In this document: positions 1,757 to 7,879 of the stretch, in pieces | Position numbering within the stretch: position 1 is the first letter of the stretch | How the letters are laid out: the number at the start of each line of letters is the position of its first letter | Virus record (IMG/VR): IMGVR_UViG_3300029245_000035 | Coordinates: 1-35,085 of that record | Reading direction: 5' to 3' (one strand) | DNA length: 35,085 bases | Source of the DNA: a virus | The notes under the pieces: model-generated | Database searches by the model: none | Told to the model about the DNA's origin: nothing | What the model saw: only the letters and a program-made list of their open reading frames with translations | Translations under genes and position numbers: made by a program

Positions 1757-3046
1757 TTACTCCTCTCCGGCGGCCGCGCCGCCGTTTCTCTGCGCACTCA
1801 GCTCCGGCCACAGGTCAAGCGGCACATAGTTCAGGCTCGCGCGCCTGCGGTTGCCGCCCGGCACGTTCGGCAGATCCTCCAGCGCCGCGATGTCGTCGGG
1901 ACTGAATACGCTCAGCTCGCTCATCGTGCGGTACCAGTTCGCGCGGCTCGCCGTGTCGCCCTTGAGCTCCGCCATCATGTTGATGCGCAGCTCCAGCCCC
2001 GCGGCCAGCTCGCTGTCGGTCAGCAGCTTGTAGCTCTGCTCCTCCTCATACTGGGTCACGATGGGGTGCAGCGTGCCGACGACATACTCGATCGCGTTCT
2101 GCTCATTGCTGCCGTAGGCCTGCTTGCCCTCGTTGAGCTTGTAGAGCGGCACGCCGAAGTAGCGCGCGATGTCCGTGATCGACAGCTGCTTGTTTTCCAC
2201 AAACTGCGCGTCGCGGTTCGTCCCCGCGATGCTCGTGTACTTGAGACCGAGGTCGAGGATCGCCGTCCGGTGCGCCTTGCTCGGCCCCATGTGGACGCGC
2301 TCCCACTCGGAGCGCAGCCGGTCCTTCTTGGTCACGAGCGAGCCGTCCGCCGCCTTGACCGGTTTTCCCTTGGTGTCCAGCACATAGCCGCCGAGGTCGG
2401 TGTCGGTCTCCAGCACGCCGCCCGGCTGCCCGCCGTTGGCATAGTAGCTCAGCTCATACTCCTGCGCGGCCCGCGCCGCGGCGATCACCTCGCTGGCGCG
2501 CGTCACCGTGCCGAGGCCGAGCAGGCCGTTGCGCGTGGCGTTCTTGTAGTGGCACACGTCCTCGTTCGGCAGCCGCATCACCTCGCCGGAGAAGGGATGC
2601 GTCACGTCGTACCACACGCGCCCCGCCATGTCGTGCCAGGGCTGCACCAGATACCACGGCACCGGGATCAGCTCCACCGGTTTGCCCGTGCGCTCGTCGC
2701 GCACGATCCAATCGTAGCCGTTGCCGCCCTCCAGGCGGCTCGTCTCCAGCACCTTCTTGCGAATGAACGGGGTCATAGCCTCGTTCGGCCGGATGTTCAG
2801 CAGCCGCAGCAGCTCGTGGTCCGTGCGCTCACGCGTCCTCGTGTCGATCACATAATTCGGCAGCTTCGCGATGCTGTCGCTCAGCAGCTCAATGCAGCGG
2901 TCGACCGCGCTGAGCTTGCGCGCCGCGCTCTGCGGGTCCTCACCGGCGGCCAGACCGCCGGAAGCCGTCAGGCTGCCGACCGTTACGGACTTGCTCACGG
3001 TGGGCGAGCGTGCGGTCGCCGCGCGCAGGCCCTTGATGATGCTCAT
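1757..3046 (-). CDS. Portal protein (HK97-family type)
   Basis: 429 aa, immediately downstream of terminase. Shows typical portal blocks: ...YDWIV..., ANGGQPGGVL, ITDIARYFGVPLYKL, NAIEYVVGTLHPIV. Confidence 0.9.
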   Translation of the reverse strand: MSIIKGLRAATARSPTVSKSVTVGSLTASGGLAAGEDPQSAARKLSAVDRCIELLSDSIAKLPNYVIDTRTRERTDHELLRLLNIRPNEAMTPFIRKKVLETSRLEGGNGYDWIVRDERTGKPVELIPVPWYLVQPWHDMAGRVWYDVTHPFSGEVMRLPNEDVCHYKNATRNGLLGLGTVTRASEVIAAARAAQEYELSYYANGGQPGGVLETDTDLGGYVLDTKGKPVKAADGSLVTKKDRLRSEWERVHMGPSKAHRTAILDLGLKYTSIAGTNRDAQFVENKQLSITDIARYFGVPLYKLNEGKQAYGSNEQNAIEYVVGTLHPIVTQYEEEQSYKLLTDSELAAGLELRINMMAELKGDTASRANWYRTMSELSVFSPDDIAALEDLPNVPGGNRRRASLNYVPLDLWPELSAQRNGGAAAGEE

Positions 3047-3230: not shown

Positions 3231-5036
3231 TCACAGCGTGAAGTCCGCCCGTGCCACCGCCGCGGCAAGATCGGGCTTCTGATTCCTGGCAACCATCCAC
3301 ACGGCCATCACGATGATGCTCGCGACCGCCGGGTCGATGCGCCCCGTTGATTTATTCTTGAGCGGCTTGATGTTGCCGTTTCCGTCCGCATGGCAGCGGA
3401 CGTTGCCGAAGGTCCAGCGGAAGCAGGTGTTGTGGACGTGCAGCAGCGTGTGGCGCTGCATCATGTCGTCCGTCTCCTTCATCGCCGGGCTCATGTTCTT
3501 GAGGTCCTGCGGGATCTCGATGATCGGCACGATCGGCGCGAGCCGCTGCGTGATGGTCCGGCTCAGATACGGGTCAAAACCTACCATCTTGAGGTCGTAG
3601 CGCTCCCGCGCCTCGCGGATGCGCTCCTCCACCGCGCCGTAGTCGATGACCTCGCCGGGGCAGAGGTCGAGGAAGCCGGCACGCGCCCAGTCCCGGTAGG
3701 GGACGTGGTCGCGCTTTTCCGCCTCGTCCACCGTCGCCTCGGGCCGCCAGATGCCATAGGGCAGCAGCACCGCCACATCCAGCCCCGGCTGGGGCGGGAA
3801 GAGCAGAACAAAGGCCGTCAGGTCGCGGCTCGTGGAAAGGTCCACGCCGCCGTAGCAGAGCTTCCCGTCCAGCTGCCGCAGCCATTCCTCGCGCTCGCGC
3901 TTTTTGCTCGGCCCCCATTGCGTCTTGTCATAGAGGTTGAGCGAGATCCAGCCGACCGACTTCGTCGTGATCCATTGGTTGAGCCGCAGCCATCGGAATA
4001 CGCGCTCTTCGGCTTCGCTGCGCTTTGCGCTCGCCGCCTCCAGGCGGATATTGCGCAGGCTCAGGTGCTTACCGAGCGATGGGTTACAGAGTTTCCACAG
4101 GCTCTCGTCCCAGATGTCCAGCGCCTCGATGTCCTCGGGATCGTCGCCGAAGGTCGCCGTCAGGCCATAGAGGATCGGCAGCCAGTTGTCCTCGTCGCGC
4201 GATAGCAGCTCGCGCTCGGCGTCGGCAAGGTCCTCGTCGCTGGCATGCCGGAGAGAGAGGACCTTGCGCACGTCGCCGCCCTCAGCGCGGATGCGCCGCA
4301 GCTGCCGCGCGTCGCGGATGGCGACCGCCTTCTCGTGGATCTCCCAGCCGATCGAGTTGCGGTCGGGGTCGTCGCCCGCGGTCGTCAGCACGATCCAAGC
4401 CGGCTGCCGCCGGCTTGCACCCGCCGCTCCGGTCATCAGATCCCACAGTTTTCGGTTTGGCTGAGCATGGAGCTCGTCGAAGATGACGCAGCTCGGTTTC
4501 GGGCCGTGCTTGCCCGCCGTCTCGGCGGAAAGCACCTGCAAGATGCCGAGCGTGATCCACTTGTAGCCGCCGTTCTCGGTTCGCACGCGCCGCCGGTATT
4601 CGATGATCTTCCGGCTTTCCACGATGTTCAACTCGCCGCGGGCGATCATTTTCGCCGTCCACGGCGCGCTCGTTGCCATAAAGACCGCCGCGCGGTAGAC
4701 GATGGAAGCGTTGTTTCGGTCGACAGCGCAGAGGTAAACCTCTGCATTCATTTCGCCGTCGGCAAAAAGGTGGTAGAGCGCAAGCGCCGCAGCCAGCTCG
4801 CTCTTGCCGTTTTTCTTCGGGATCTCGAGGTAGAGGTACCAGTACCGGCGCAGCCGCTCTGCGCTCTCATCCGTGCCCGATTCGGGCACGTCGGCGCACA
4901 TCGTGCCGTAGAACTCCATCAGCGCCTCGCGCTGCCAGTCGTAAAGGCAGAAGGGCTTGCCCGTGTCGGTCGTCGGCAGGCGCTCGACAAAGTCGCACAC
5001 GAACTGCCCCGCCTCGCGGTCGAAAACGTATGCCAT
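3231..5036 (-). CDS. terL: Terminase large subunit
   Basis: Walker A-like EIPKKNGKSELAAALAL, VIFDELHAQ (Walker B) and a C-terminal nuclease domain. ATG at 5036 (MAYVFDREAG) abuts the TerS stop. Confidence 0.92.
   Translation of the reverse strand: MAYVFDREAGQFVCDFVERLPTTDTGKPFCLYDWQREALMEFYGTMCADVPESGTDESAERLRRYWYLYLEIPKKNGKSELAAALALYHLFADGEMNAEVYLCAVDRNNASIVYRAAVFMATSAPWTAKMIARGELNIVESRKIIEYRRRVRTENGGYKWITLGILQVLSAETAGKHGPKPSCVIFDELHAQPNRKLWDLMTGAAGASRRQPAWIVLTTAGDDPDRNSIGWEIHEKAVAIRDARQLRRIRAEGGDVRKVLSLRHASDEDLADAERELLSRDEDNWLPILYGLTATFGDDPEDIEALDIWDESLWKLCNPSLGKHLSLRNIRLEAASAKRSEAEERVFRWLRLNQWITTKSVGWISLNLYDKTQWGPSKKREREEWLRQLDGKLCYGGVDLSTSRDLTAFVLLFPPQPGLDVAVLLPYGIWRPEATVDEAEKRDHVPYRDWARAGFLDLCPGEVIDYGAVEERIREARERYDLKMVGFDPYLSRTITQRLAPIVPIIEIPQDLKNMSPAMKETDDMMQRHTLLHVHNTCFRWTFGNVRCHADGNGNIKPLKNKSTGRIDPAVASIIVMAVWMVARNQKPDLAAAVARADFTL
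4873..4889. repeat. 17-bp palindrome GTGCCCGATTCGGGCAC (perfect copy)
   Basis: Read directly from the sequence. Lies inside terL, where it encodes VPESGT. Confidence 0.95.
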
Positions 5037-5037
5037 G

Positions 5038-5568
5038 CTACAGGCTCCGCGCCAGCGCGTCCGCCTGCCGCTGCCGCAGCCGCTCCGTAAACTCATCTGT
5101 CCCGCTCTCCGGCGTGAACGCCGCCGCGGGCAGATTGCTCGGCAGCACCAGCCGGCAGCGGCTCGATACCGTCAGGCCCATGTCGTTCGCGCAGTTGCGC
5201 GCCTGCTTGAAGTAGCGCTCCTGCACGCGGCCCCAGCCGTCCGCCGCCTCTAAGTCGCGCGCGTGGCCCGGCGACTGAGTCAAGGCCCGCTGCACCTCCG
5301 CCGTCGCGCTGATATACTCGTGGTGGGCGACCAGATAGCGCCCGAGGTTGTCCGCGTCGAGGTCGGTGTAGAGCCCCACGTCAATGAGCTGCTTGCCGAT
5401 CGCGCGAAACTCGCGATGCAGTTCCTTGGGCAGCCATTTGGGCGGCTTCGCCCGCTGCGGCGCCGGCACCACCACCTCACGGTCGCGCCGCGCGTCCTCC
5501 TCGGCGCGCGTCATGTGCTTGCGCCCGTTCCTCACGACCAGATCGGTCGGTTGTCTTGCTCCTGCCAT
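5038..5568 (-). CDS. terS: Terminase small subunit, P27-family type
   Basis: 176 aa directly upstream of terL. The basic N-terminus and ...LYTDLDADNLGRYLVAHHEY...ANDMGLTVSSRCRL are typical of P27-like small terminases. AAAGGAG lies upstream of ATG 5568. Confidence 0.78.
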   Translation of the reverse strand: MAGARQPTDLVVRNGRKHMTRAEEDARRDREVVVPAPQRAKPPKWLPKELHREFRAIGKQLIDVGLYTDLDADNLGRYLVAHHEYISATAEVQRALTQSPGHARDLEAADGWGRVQERYFKQARNCANDMGLTVSSRCRLVLPSNLPAAAFTPESGTDEFTERLRQRQADALARSL

Positions 5569-5660: not shown

Positions 5661-6962
5661 TCAGCGATCGTCATGCTTCCCCAGCGCGGCGACAATTGAC
5701 CTCTCACGGGCACTCAGCTCCCAAACATGTGCCGCCGCCTTCTCCGCCGCCGCCTTCTCCGCCGCCGCCTTCTCCGCCGCCGCCTTCTCCGCCGCCGCCT
5801 TCTCCGAAAGAAGAAACGCCGCGCCGTAGATGGCTTTTTTCTGTGCGCGCTGCTCGTCCAGCGCCCGTGTAAAAGCGGCGTCCTCCGCACGCACACGCAG
5901 CGCCTGCCACTTGGCGGTCGGCGCAATACGGATCGGCGTCATCACGCAGTCCGGGTAGGTGTAGCCGGGCAACTCCGCCGCACCCTCACAGGTGTTTTGC
6001 GTGTTCAGCTCATCCACCCTGCGCCACAGCTCCGGCACCGTTTCAATTTTCCAGTTTCCAAGGTTGGTCACAAAGCTTGTGCGCACATCCGCGCCGTTTT
6101 CATAGGTGATGCGGCAAGACATCGGCAAATAGTTGCATGTCCCGGCCGCGATGCTAAAAAGCGTCAGTGCCGGCGCAAAAAGGAAAAATCGGATGCCGCG
6201 CTCCGTGTAAAATCGGCAGATCTGCGAGAGGATAGAAAACGGCGGGTTGTCAATCACCACGCAGCCGTCCGGGTAGGTCTCGTGCTCATAGTCGCCTCCG
6301 GGGTAAAATGGCCGAATCACCGGCGCGCCCTGCAAGCCGTAGTGCGCCAAAGCCCAGTCGCGAATCACCTCGTAGATGTTCTGCGGCGTGTAGCAGTCGT
6401 CGGTGGTGAGTTTCGGCTTGAATTTATCCACAAATTTCTCATAATCCTCGCTGCTTTCGCTCTCGACATCTCCCCAGAAGTGGTTTCTTTCTGCCGCTGG
6501 TTTCGCCCGCTCGTGGGCGCTGACATGGATCGTCTCGATCTCGTCCATCGTGAAACCGGTCAGCGCGGTGTCGAAAGAAAGGCTGCTTAGCTCTTCCATC
6601 TCAAACTTGAGCCGCGCCGCGTCCCACTCGCCCGTCTCGGCAAGTCGGTTGTCGGCGATGATGTAGGCGCGCCGCTGCGCCTCGCTCAGGTCGCTCACCG
6701 TCACATACGGGACCTCGGTCATACCCTCGGCCCGCGCCGCCTCGACGCGCCCATGTCCGGCGATCAGGTGCTTGTCCTTGTCGATCAGCACCGGCGAGAC
6801 GAAGCCGAACTCGCGCAGGCTGCGCCGCAGCTGCTCGATCTGCTCCGGCCCGTGGATCTTTGCGTTGTTTGCATAGGGGACCAGCTCGTCGATGCGTATT
6901 GTCGGCAGGTCCTTGACCACCACGCGCACCGGCGTCTGCACTGCTGTCTGCTTATTTCCCAT
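5661..6962 (-). CDS. ParB-like nuclease domain fused to N6-adenine DNA methyltransferase
   Basis: N-terminal ParB/Srx block: IRIDELVPYANNAKIH...LIAGHGRVEAA. C-terminal half carries DDCYTP and the VVIDNPPFS catalytic motif. ATG 6962 follows ACAGGAGGCAAGGC. The C-terminal tail contains (EKAAA)x5. Confidence 0.8.
   Translation of the reverse strand: MGNKQTAVQTPVRVVVKDLPTIRIDELVPYANNAKIHGPEQIEQLRRSLREFGFVSPVLIDKDKHLIAGHGRVEAARAEGMTEVPYVTVSDLSEAQRRAYIIADNRLAETGEWDAARLKFEMEELSSLSFDTALTGFTMDEIETIHVSAHERAKPAAERNHFWGDVESESSEDYEKFVDKFKPKLTTDDCYTPQNIYEVIRDWALAHYGLQGAPVIRPFYPGGDYEHETYPDGCVVIDNPPFSILSQICRFYTERGIRFFLFAPALTLFSIAAGTCNYLPMSCRITYENGADVRTSFVTNLGNWKIETVPELWRRVDELNTQNTCEGAAELPGYTYPDCVMTPIRIAPTAKWQALRVRAEDAAFTRALDEQRAQKKAIYGAAFLLSEKAAAEKAAAEKAAAEKAAAEKAAAHVWELSARERSIVAALGKHDDR
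5731..5805. repeat. Perfect tandem repeat, 5 x 15 bp (gccgccgccttctcc)
   Basis: Read directly. Encodes AEKAA x5 in the methyltransferase C-terminal tail. Confidence 0.95.
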
Positions 6963-6992
6963 GCCTTGCCTCCTGTCGATATCTCCGATGCA

Positions 6993-7081
6993 GTCCCCGG
7001 CCCTCAACGCTGAGGGCACGGGGGACAGATCCGTGAAGGCTATGGCCGGCTTCAAGAGCCGGGGACCACACCGGACGCTTT
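6993..7081. repeat. Degenerate ~90-bp unit A (large hairpin + small hairpin)
   Basis: By-eye alignment to 7181-7267: tccccgGccctc..gagggc.cgggg ... caagagcCggggaCcacAccGgaCgcttt versus tccccgCccctc..gagggc.cgggg ... caaagagcggggaAcacGcaGgaGcttt. Confidence 0.6.
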
Positions 7082-7180
7082 AGTATCTGCCCCACCGGGC
7101 CTACGTCAATACACCACGCATCAAGCGCAGTCCTTCGGCCCAGGCAGGGCGGCGTTTTGCTTTTCTTTACTCCTGCGCAT

Positions 7181-7267
7181 TCCCCGCCCCTCGCAATTCG
7201 AGGGCCGCGGGGTAGGAGGAAATTCATGACCGCCCCGGTCAAAGAGCGGGGAACACGCAGGAGCTTT
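7181..7267. repeat. Degenerate ~90-bp unit B
   Basis: See unit A. Roughly two-thirds identity by eye, with the same hairpin order. Confidence 0.6.
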
Positions 7268-7411
7268 CCCGAAAATTCCCCGTGGGGAAAAAATCTCGCA
7301 CGAGGGAGGGCAGGCGGTTTGCAAGGGCAGCGCCCAAACTTTCTGACCCCGGGGAGGGGTCTGCAAGGAAGTCCCGCGCGACGCTCTCGCGACGCGCCCG
7401 AGCGCCCAAGC

Positions 7412-7804
7412 CTACTGCCGCGCCGCCGCGCTGCGGCGCTTTGATTTGCTGCGATTCTCGTGCATTTCTCGCGCCGTCTTGCGGCTGTGGCAGCTGTGGC
7501 AGAGGCTCTCGAGGTTGCTACGGTCGCAGAACTTTGACCAGTCGCCCTTGTGGTCGACGATGTGGTCCACGTCCGTCGCGCGGACCCGCCGTCCGTGCCG
7601 GGCGCACTCGCGGCAGAACGGCTCGCGCAAAAGCTGCGCCGGCCGCAGGTCGAGCTTCCACTCGTCGGTCTGGTACATCCAGCGCCAGGACTGCGCTTCT
7701 TCACTGCGCCGGTCGCCGCGCGGCCGATGGGCGTCGCAGTATCCATCGCTCACCAGCACGCAGCAGCCGGGATGCCGGCAGGGTCGGAGCGGCTTCAAGG
7801 CCAT
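7412..7804 (-). CDS. HNH endonuclease (packaging-associated type)
   Basis: MALKPLRPCRHPGC...GYCDAH... followed by DVDHIVDHKGDWSKFCDRSNLESLCHSCHSRKT. ATG 7804 follows GGAGGTGA. Confidence 0.85.
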   Translation of the reverse strand: MALKPLRPCRHPGCCVLVSDGYCDAHRPRGDRRSEEAQSWRWMYQTDEWKLDLRPAQLLREPFCRECARHGRRVRATDVDHIVDHKGDWSKFCDRSNLESLCHSCHSRKTAREMHENRSKSKRRSAAARQ

Positions 7805-7822
7805 CGGGCTATCACCTCCGGG

Positions 7823-7879
7823 CAAAACAAAAAGCCTGCACCGACACAAACCGCATACAGCGGATCATGTGGCGCAGGC
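7823..7879 (-). terminator. Possible Rho-independent terminator upstream of the HNH gene
   Basis: On the minus strand, GCCTGCGCCACA...TGTCGGTGCAGGC forms an imperfect long stem followed by TTTTTGTTTTG. Confidence 0.4.

Follow-up and report, generated by a model that had tools for sequence, protein, structure and literature searches.

We examine here a gap of 449 nucleotides (nt) in the packaging module of the phage deposited as IMG/VR record IMGVR_UViG_3300029245_000035. The window, i.e. the whole stretch of DNA that was analysed, is the complete 35,085-bp record, which was assembled circularly and has terminal repeats of the assembly type. Along its minus strand, a Rep-like gene precedes the gene of an HNH endonuclease, and after the gap come the genes for a ParB-N/methyltransferase protein (ParB-methyltransferase below), the small terminase (terS), an HK97-type large terminase (TerL) and the portal protein (Table 1). 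The Pfam matches of the packaging module fall in the order HNH, Terminase_4, TerL_ATPase/nuclease and Phage_portal. The gap extends from the HNH stop codon (TAG, 7414–7412 on the minus strand) to the ATG of the ParB-methyltransferase gene, a start at which the tblastn alignments of relatives also open (residue 1). We will argue that it is most probably a composite of a cohesive-end site (cos; 7411–7273) and, behind it, three accessory leader modules made of sense-strand RNA (7265–6982), which form a cassette and most likely act in cis. We assign this reading a probability of roughly two-thirds.

The relatives used for comparison are those that were retrieved with the HNH protein, namely prophages and viral contigs of gut Oscillospiraceae (Oscillibacter, Dysosmobacter and others). 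Labels of the type L### denote the loci compared, and G### the genomes or contigs. The coordinates of the features are collected in Table 1.

Table 1. Features of the gap and of the surrounding minus-strand genes, in the order of transcription (R2 is the covariance model of the Y-units, see text; SD, Shine–Dalgarno sequence; aa, amino acids).
Feature	Position	Strand	Evidence
Rep-like gene, 240 aa	8149..8871	-	PHROG replication initiation protein 1.2e-25; weakly REP_ORF2-G2P
HNH endonuclease gene (terminase-associated, HK97 gp74-like position)	7412..7849	-	Pfam HNH 5.8e-08; PHROG HNH endonuclease 2.8e-30
Right-end side of cos	7317..7411	-	GCTTGGGCGC box, GCGTCGCG x2 repeat (7378-7396), GACCCC..GGGGTC palindrome (7345-7361)
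Predicted cosN single-stranded extension, 10 nt CGCCTGCCCT (minus)	7307..7316	-	relatives' consensus CGCNNGCCCT; predicted from relatives
Left-end cos core: CCCTCC box and TTTTCCCCACGGGGAAT palindrome (7277-7290)	7273..7306	-	conservation in relatives
Y-unit A: 18-bp outer stem closing a multiloop, two hairpins, unpaired UUUCCUCC	7169..7265	-	model R2 90.5 bits sense vs 26.9 antisense
DUF3800-VIII RNA motif (Rfam RF03075)	7086..7153	-	45.8 bits vs gathering 40.2; model 1-64 of 64
Y-unit B, homologue of A	6982..7077	-	R2 97.7 bits; end 7 nt ahead of ParB-methyltransferase SD
SD (AGGAGG, 6974-6969) and ATG (6962-6960) of ParB-methyltransferase gene	6960..6974	-	sequence; Pfam/PHROG gene match
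ParB-N/methyltransferase gene	5661..6962	-	
terS	5038..5568	-	
TerL gene, HK97-type	3231..5096	-	
Portal gene	1757..3046	-	

The gap (6963–7411) is non-coding and structured beyond chance, as follows from its open reading frames (ORFs), its folding energies, its word content and the way in which it varies between relatives. None of the five overlapping ORFs (6952–7746, 7121–7366 and 7239–7409 on the minus strand, 7157–7444 and 6892–7083 on the plus strand) matches a PHROG, and 6952–7746, the ORF that was run against Pfam, has no match there either; the flanking HNH, ParB-methyltransferase and Rep-like genes do match. The fold of the minus strand has an energy of −230.9 kcal mol−1 (z = −3.5, with 0 of 100 shuffles as good) and that of the plus strand −205.4 kcal mol−1 (z = −2.45). 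The minus-strand fold is thus both the more stable and the more unusual of the two, which indicates a preference for the sense strand. C4/G4 words are enriched 6–15-fold in the gap, TCCCCG/CGGGGA ca 15-fold, and the gaps of relatives differ by insertions and deletions of whole blocks of 90–190 nt each.

A DNA similarity search with the gap against 50,697 phage records gave no match, and no minus-strand terminator was found in it. Its sole promoter-like match sits within the conserved loop of the DUF3800-VIII motif, and other copies of the motif lack it. A plus-strand SD sequence followed by an ATG (AGGAGGAAATTCATG, 7214–7228) was considered as a sign of coding and rejected, being the complement of the CU-rich loop of Y-unit A, with an ATG that is absent from other Y-units.

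An earlier note on this DNA had described ca 450 nt of hairpin-dense, non-coding sequence between the HNH stop and the ParB-methyltransferase start, and this description holds. The elements that it listed are also present, namely nested GC hairpins at 6993–7026 and 7182–7212, CCCC/GGGG palindromes at 7277–7290 and 7345–7361, the sequence AGAGC(C)GGGGA(A/C)CAC once in each of two repeat units (7055–7069 and 7243–7256), and a direct duplication near 7376–7396, which is an 8-mer, CGCGACGC, occurring at 7378–7385 and 7389–7396. The two homologous units of ca 90 nt are real, but their boundaries are somewhat larger than had been stated (arms 6984–7075 and 7170–7263; ca 95 nt).

Strong comparative evidence suggests that cos occupies the part of the gap nearest to HNH, 7411–7273, and that the phage is one of the HK97-like cos phages of Oscillospiraceae in which the HNH protein assists the terminase; the two proteins are predicted to cut at about 7307–7316. 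Within the gap, conservation is widest in the 140 nt next to HNH (ca 72% identity where HNH is 67–84% identical), and relatives with a minimal gap keep little beyond them. A 17-mer of the left-end cos core is retained despite diverged surroundings, e.g. in L197, L198 and L211, and an anchor-like cos word was found in 10 of the 11 loci checked, followed in each of those 10 by RNA modules.

The position of the cut is indicated by six termini from five independent related linear contigs, all of which fall at one homologous site. The right ends of G025 (37,757 nt, 100% complete), G206 (33,743 nt) and G207 (8,620 nt, 24% complete) lie at ...AAC, and right ends are located 19–21 nt beyond a conserved (A/G)AAGTTT. 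The left end of G025 comes 10 nt later, G210 (35,946 nt, 100% complete) starts exactly 10 nt after the ...AAC point, and G211 (26,892 nt, 74% complete) starts 13 nt after it, so that the left ends are 10, 10 and 13 nt past the right ends. When the right and left ends of G025 are joined, the continuous sequence of L211 is obtained minus exactly 10 nt. Transferred to the window, the right end would lie after 7317 (...GCAAAC), the 10 nt would be 7316–7307, and the left end would start at 7306. The termini of the relatives thus place the cut ca 95–105 nt after the HNH stop, upstream of both Y-units. That cos would be found between HNH and terS, as the earlier note had proposed, therefore agrees with the contig ends, but the site is not within the repeat units.

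The 10-nt cohesive end is probably of 3′ polarity, because the 10 nt are absent from both assembled ends, as end-polishing of a 3′ extension would leave them. HK97, the precedent, has ends with 10-nt 3′ overhangs (PMC9410871). The likeness to HK97 cos and gp74 extends to the gene order, with the HNH gene directly upstream and terS and an HK97-type TerL downstream, and to the length of the extension implied by the termini of the relatives. On the other hand, there is no sequence similarity between the two cos sites, the ends of the window are deduced from the contigs of relatives, and the window, unlike HK97, has the ParB-methylase gene and the RNA modules between cos and terS.

In the global minimum-free-energy fold of the gap, the CCCTCC box that comes after the predicted cosN (7306–7297) pairs with the SD region of the ParB-methyltransferase gene (6974–6969) and encloses the three modules. 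This box is kept in distant relatives, and cos recognition and an anti-SD function are its candidate roles.

The remainder of the gap is occupied by two homologous Y-units and the DUF3800-VIII motif, which lies exactly between them. The outer arms are 6984–7004 and 7055–7075 in unit B and 7170–7187 and 7246–7263 in unit A, and register-keeping direct repeats are spaced by exactly 187 nt. By BLAST, unit B is detected in 34 relatives and unit A in 24, in both cases among the closest relatives only. The covariance model R2, which was built from units A and B, finds diverged copies in distant relatives with E values of 1e-6 to 1e-9. It matches one or two copies in each of nine further distinct loci (L033, L051, L108, L057, L088, L109, L099, L103 and L038/L089), with HNH 67–84% identical, and gives two weaker matches in L046/L047 (E ca 1e-3 and 0.02). 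At every site, the match is stronger on the sense strand than on the antisense strand. Further Y-units are found in two other prophages, directly ahead of a small gene that precedes a GpA-type (lambda-type) TerL gene. Oscillibacter ruminantium GH1 is a host strain with a Y-unit prophage. Family-wide genome scans for Y-units were empty, but few candidates were scored in these scans and a known positive was missed.

In the Y-unit alignment fitted to the model, 96.4% of the cells are paired and 19 of the 23 outer-stem pairs show double changes. The observed values are matched in 0 of 500 shuffles, and pairing falls to 42–49% when the register is slid. The cells of the outer stem comprise 414 Watson–Crick, 99 G·U and 6 A·C combinations, corresponding to a G·U to A·C ratio of ca 16:1. 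Tandem U·G/G·U pairs in the stem and the unpaired UUUCCUCC in the multiloop are conserved, and an inner segment is able to pair with the 3′ arm if the 5′ arm is unavailable, which is the nested hairpin of the earlier note. The Y-unit matches only generic long-hairpin models in Rfam; relaxed-threshold matches to miRNA precursors were discarded, as they reflect long hairpins only. Judged by its strong covariation, the Y-unit is an uncatalogued structured RNA family.

The covariation and the 16:1 preference of G·U over A·C argue for folding of the Y-units and DUF3800-VIII as RNA and against double-stranded sites for the terminase. The latter idea, which had been offered in the earlier note, is that the units form a cosB-like array of double-stranded DNA sites positioning the small terminase beside cosN. 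The units do occupy the position of lambda cosB, with cosN on one side and the first left-end gene on the other, the palindrome of the cos core and both units contain TCCCCG/CGGGGA half-sites, and some relatives, such as L044, have 31-nt tandem hairpin repeats at that place. However, phages whose terS and HNH are 96–98% identical lack unit A and the DUF3800-VIII hairpin, L032-type relatives have no unit at all, and unit B is retained with two terS types that are ca 52% identical (five unit-B relatives have a terS match of 51–53%). The same unit family, moreover, occurs ahead of the small gene upstream of the unrelated GpA-type TerL, and an excess of 99 G·U over 6 A·C in covarying stems is meaningless for duplex DNA. 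A cosB-like role of the units is hence improbable. The other explanation that the earlier note had considered, an RNA built of structured repeats and made together with the late operon, is the better supported of the two.

The tandem repeats of L044 (3545–3766) are seven in number, with GCUGC..GCAGC hairpins, and stand directly past the cos core and ahead of DUF3800-VIII, and L001 has a related three-hairpin insert (2153–2242). These phased repeats are better candidates for cosB or TerS sites than the units of the window.

The third module, DUF3800-VIII, is the sole match in the whole phage above an Rfam gathering threshold. The earlier note had not been able to assign any RNA family here, and that part of it is superseded. 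The motif was described by Weinberg et al. in 2017 (PMC5737381). The eleven DUF3800-associated RNA motifs have been without a functional hypothesis since 2017, and DUF3800-VIII was not found mentioned by name in our literature search.

We aligned 15 sequences of the motif: the window copy, nine copies of Oscillospiraceae genomes and five of related phages. They share a hairpin of 23 pairs, 14 of which show compensatory changes. Several positions of CGAAG and all of GUAG are invariant in the 15 copies, and four positions are kept as U·G or G·U. Since these wobble pairs would be C·A mismatches on the other strand, the structure belongs to the sense strand. Both stems of the hairpin, the internal-loop blocks CGAAG and GUAUUGAyGUAG and the wobble pairs are retained in the window copy, whose apical loop differs from the host consensus. 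DUF3800-VIII is present in 12 of the 50 related phage records tested, in L044 and L045 ca 430 nt after HNH, and the Rfam matches in HNH-oriented loci are all on the HNH strand.

No DUF3800 gene (PF12686) was found in the window phage or in the 50 related phage records. A relic of a lost DUF3800 cassette was considered and rejected: the motif covaries between phage lineages and is on the gene-sense strand in all phage contexts checked, which makes a decaying relic unlikely.

In bacterial genomes, a DUF3800 gene ends directly ahead of three of the nine Oscillospiraceae copies, which are encoded on the strand opposite to it. These three have a sigma-70-like −10 box 8–10 nt upstream, which in L165 belongs to a full TTGACA-17-TATAAT promoter, and a clear U-tract follows the motif at two of the three DUF3800-linked loci. 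From its own −10 box or promoter and U-tract, the host DUF3800-VIII can be taken as a small stand-alone RNA. The window copy, unlike host copies with a TATAAT-type −10 box and a U-tract, is not flanked by a promoter or U-tract and forms part of a longer leader. It also lacks the adjoining DUF3800 gene of the copies in L161, L163 and L165, which is a matter of association and not a structural criterion.

The DUF3800 protein linked to DUF3800-VIII matches the PADLOC defence candidate PDC-M04A (1.4e-22), and its genes are embedded in or adjoin genes of the defence type (BREX, patatin-like phospholipase) or an integrase. In L171 (4578–9147; G089, Oscillospiraceae), DUF3800 and a convergent DUF3800-VIII small RNA (sRNA) form a cassette of ca 1.07 kb with its own promoter and terminator. 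The cassette is placed between an 853-aa N-terminal and a 311-aa C-terminal part of the BREX methyltransferase PglX, just after brxC, and it may be a mobile insertion splitting pglX. Two more copies, L168 and L169 in G066, have TATAAT boxes and U-rich tails but no DUF3800 gene upstream; the L169 copy is downstream of a WYL/HTH regulator and the L168 copy downstream of a 289-aa protein.

In phages, wherever the flanks can be identified, the motif heads late or packaging genes. The order is regulator, motif, HNH and TerL in L173, motif, terS-like gene and GpA TerL in L174, and motif, SD and ParB-methylase fusion in L167. For the SPbeta-like Bacillus phage Goe14 (OL580764.1), GenBank annotates a skipping-rope RNA and DUF3800-VIII between the yonO RNA polymerase/hup and the late genes, with the large terminase ca 4 kb downstream of the annotated RNAs. 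In this phage (L227, 3790–4985), ca 1.2 kb without annotated genes separates DUF3800-VIII from skipping-rope, an RNA that was recently shown to be a tRNA mimic. The lambda-type terminase prophages and SPbeta-like phages with the motif have no DUF3800 gene where this was tested.

These two settings raise the alternative that the phage DUF3800-VIII is a mimic of a defence sRNA, titrating or mis-regulating host DUF3800 nucleases, or conversely that the host sRNA is a bait, copied from the phage late-leader element and sensing a phage late protein. The anatomy of the gap would be the same as in the cis-acting leader, with the function alone being different, and the flanking Y-stems would help to release or stabilise the RNA. 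Several observations are consistent with it. The host motif is convergent with DUF3800 genes and has its own promoter, and the encoded protein is the above-mentioned defence candidate, near BREX, patatin-like phospholipase or integrase genes. The DUF3800 domain of Adt1, a Cas12a3 auxiliary protein triggered by tRNA tails, is an RNase H-fold RNA nuclease. DUF3800 is encoded in 0 of the 51 phage records of the lineage, the window included, and the covariation of the motif between phage lineages indicates that it is under selection there. One genome, G055, carries a DUF3800 and sRNA locus together with a prophage that has the motif before terS.

RNA-based counter-defence is known from phage pseudo-ToxI repeats. 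It has a further precedent in the RNA anti-CRISPRs (Racrs), by which phages counter host defence (PMC10651486). As in these systems, a phage RNA resembles a bacterial RNA encoded beside a defence-type nuclease and the cognate protein gene is absent; the difference is that the decoy role of the window copy is putative, as is the pairing of DUF3800 with the sRNA for defence. Against a mimic or bait, a late-operon leader is poorly placed for an early-acting inhibitor, and the apical loop of the window copy departs from the host consensus. The motif stands at the head of late or packaging genes in every identifiable phage context, which suggests a native phage role. We therefore put this function forward only tentatively, as distinctly less probable than cis action. 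It is likewise rather unlikely, at the present state of the evidence, that DUF3800-VIII in phage leaders represents one side of an RNA-level arms race with DUF3800 nucleases of defence islands, which a dedicated and strongly expressed sRNA of like shape would control.

The modules are present or absent even among near-identical phages, and unit A is missing in the close relatives L018, L020, L022 and L023. A relative with 99% identical HNH, L002, contains an additional 100-nt structured module (3681–3780, compared with 7166–7180 of the window), which is bracketed by the direct repeat ATGCGCAGGAG, and the L018-type deletions retain a boundary sequence identical to that at the L002 module. On the basis of the repeat bracket and the retained boundary, it appears that phages acquire and lose the RNA modules through recombination between boundary repeats that they share.

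The same polymorphism has to be weighed as a possible sign of selfish elements, similar to miniature inverted-repeat transposable elements (MITEs) or Correia elements, that colonise a permissive intergenic site. Their length of ca 95 nt, the terminal inverted repeats of 18–23 nt and the direct repeat around the additional L002 module would fit such elements. However, the units were found only in the gap between cos and the first gene, with the sense match stronger everywhere and just two copies in the 35-kb phage. In two host genomes, single further copies were seen, here too in front of a small gene with a large terminase gene behind it, the whole-genome searches behind these counts being of low sensitivity. 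The UUUCCUCC loop and the tandem wobble pairs are, in addition, conserved while the stems covary. Selfish elements of this kind are a very improbable explanation, still somewhat more so than cosB-like sites.

The location of the units relative to the downstream genes is also of interest here. The last Y or Y-like unit ends within ca 9 nt of the SD in 11 of the 14 loci listed, the next gene being ParB-methyltransferase, terS or a small Cys-rich ORF. Long near-perfect stems of 18–23 bp are thus found between cistrons, adjoining the ribosome-binding site. In the L044 and L047 groups, DUF3800-VIII is followed by a long-stem unit of ca 100 nt before the next ribosome-binding site. The small Cys-rich ORFs (zinc-ribbon-like, ca 60 aa) have strong SDs and come after the last Y-unit, between cos and terS, in L051 (from ca 3721), L108, L057 and L044 (ca 4005–4200).

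A further option is that the units are single-stranded DNA hairpins which the Rep-like protein, encoded ca 1 kb upstream, recognises as an origin of rolling-circle replication or as a nick site. The PHROG and weak REP_ORF2-G2P matches of this protein (Table 1) are in line with such a role, DNA hairpins tolerate G·T pairs, and the Rep-like gene and the Y-unit co-occur in GpA-type prophages, where in L219 and L220 a Rep-like homologue is found ahead of a Y-unit and the small gene upstream of TerL. The Rep-like gene is, however, conserved in nearly all relatives, including those without units, while DUF3800-VIII is demonstrably an RNA gene elsewhere and the units abut ribosome-binding sites. This is the least probable of the readings considered. 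Altogether, the MITE-like, HUH-origin and cosB readings are less likely than a cis-acting leader or a mimic.

The reading that we favour is thus cos followed by a cassette of leader RNAs. Module content that does not track terS and strand-specific wobble pairs point to a single strand as the functional form, for which the late transcript is the simplest candidate. The most economical and most likely model of this function, drawn from the position and shape of the modules only, is an action in cis on the late mRNA. After circularisation, the late transcript would cross the re-joined cos on its way from HNH to the packaging genes, and each RNA module would fold independently as it is transcribed, the last long stem stopping just short of the ribosome-binding site of the ParB-methylase gene. 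The 18–23-bp stems would define or protect RNA ends, in the manner of RNase III-type processing sites or 5′-stabiliser hairpins, and would also set the translation of the first gene after cos. The conserved unpaired UUUCCUCC loop is a candidate anti-SD element; the loop of unit A could pair with the SD/AUG of the ParB-methyltransferase gene (12 of 15), a value that is inseparable from generic CCUCC/GGAGG complementarity.

RNase III processing hairpins and 5′-stabiliser stems are known in phage polycistronic mRNAs, such as those of T7 (R sites) and of the B. subtilis phage SP82. With these the window shares intercistronic stems of ca 20 bp with internal loops, which are repeated and end just before a ribosome-binding site; the Y-units differ from them by the conserved CU-rich loop and the alternative inner helix. 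Similarly, the ROOL, GOLLD and skipping-rope RNAs in the late leaders of Gram-positive phages are non-coding, highly structured and optional elements ahead of packaging or structural genes. Compared to those, the modules of the window are small (65–100 nt), repeated and shuffled.

A number of points weigh against this reading, or against parts of it. The position of cos is transferred from the assembly ends of relatives and not taken from the window phage itself, and the choice of 3′ over 5′ polarity draws solely on the 10 nt missing at both ends. The alignment that shows the covariation of the Y-units was fitted to the model and is thereby biased toward the structure, and single-stranded DNA hairpins that tolerate G·T, on the same strand, would yield an equal asymmetry for the Y-units. 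The RNA modules of the window are not bounded by a promoter or a terminator. Finally, the modules are dispensable, with some relatives having only ca 39 nt from the cos anchor word to the terS ATG, which means that any cis function would be accessory.

The results have implications at several levels. The predicted cos site, with its 10-nt extension of consensus CGCNNGCCCT, can be used for annotation in uncultured phages of gut Oscillospiraceae, a large group. The short stretch from cosN to the gene that is packaged first is an accessory hot spot, with shuffled non-coding cassettes besides protein-coding morons, and the Y-unit adds a new structured RNA family that is not catalogued in Rfam. For DUF3800-VIII, an orphan RNA class is now seen in two settings, as an sRNA bounded by promoter and terminator beside defence-candidate DUF3800 nucleases, and as a leader element of phages that lack the protein. 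The latter setting spans three unrelated phage types, and the mimic, decoy or bait model thereby becomes testable. If the arms race were true, the orphan DUF3800 RNA motifs would supply the RNA half of an immune module that pairs RNA with a nuclease. Phage copies that neutralise the nuclease or trigger it wrongly, or a host sRNA serving as a bait, would then amount to a new kind of anti-defence at the level of RNA.

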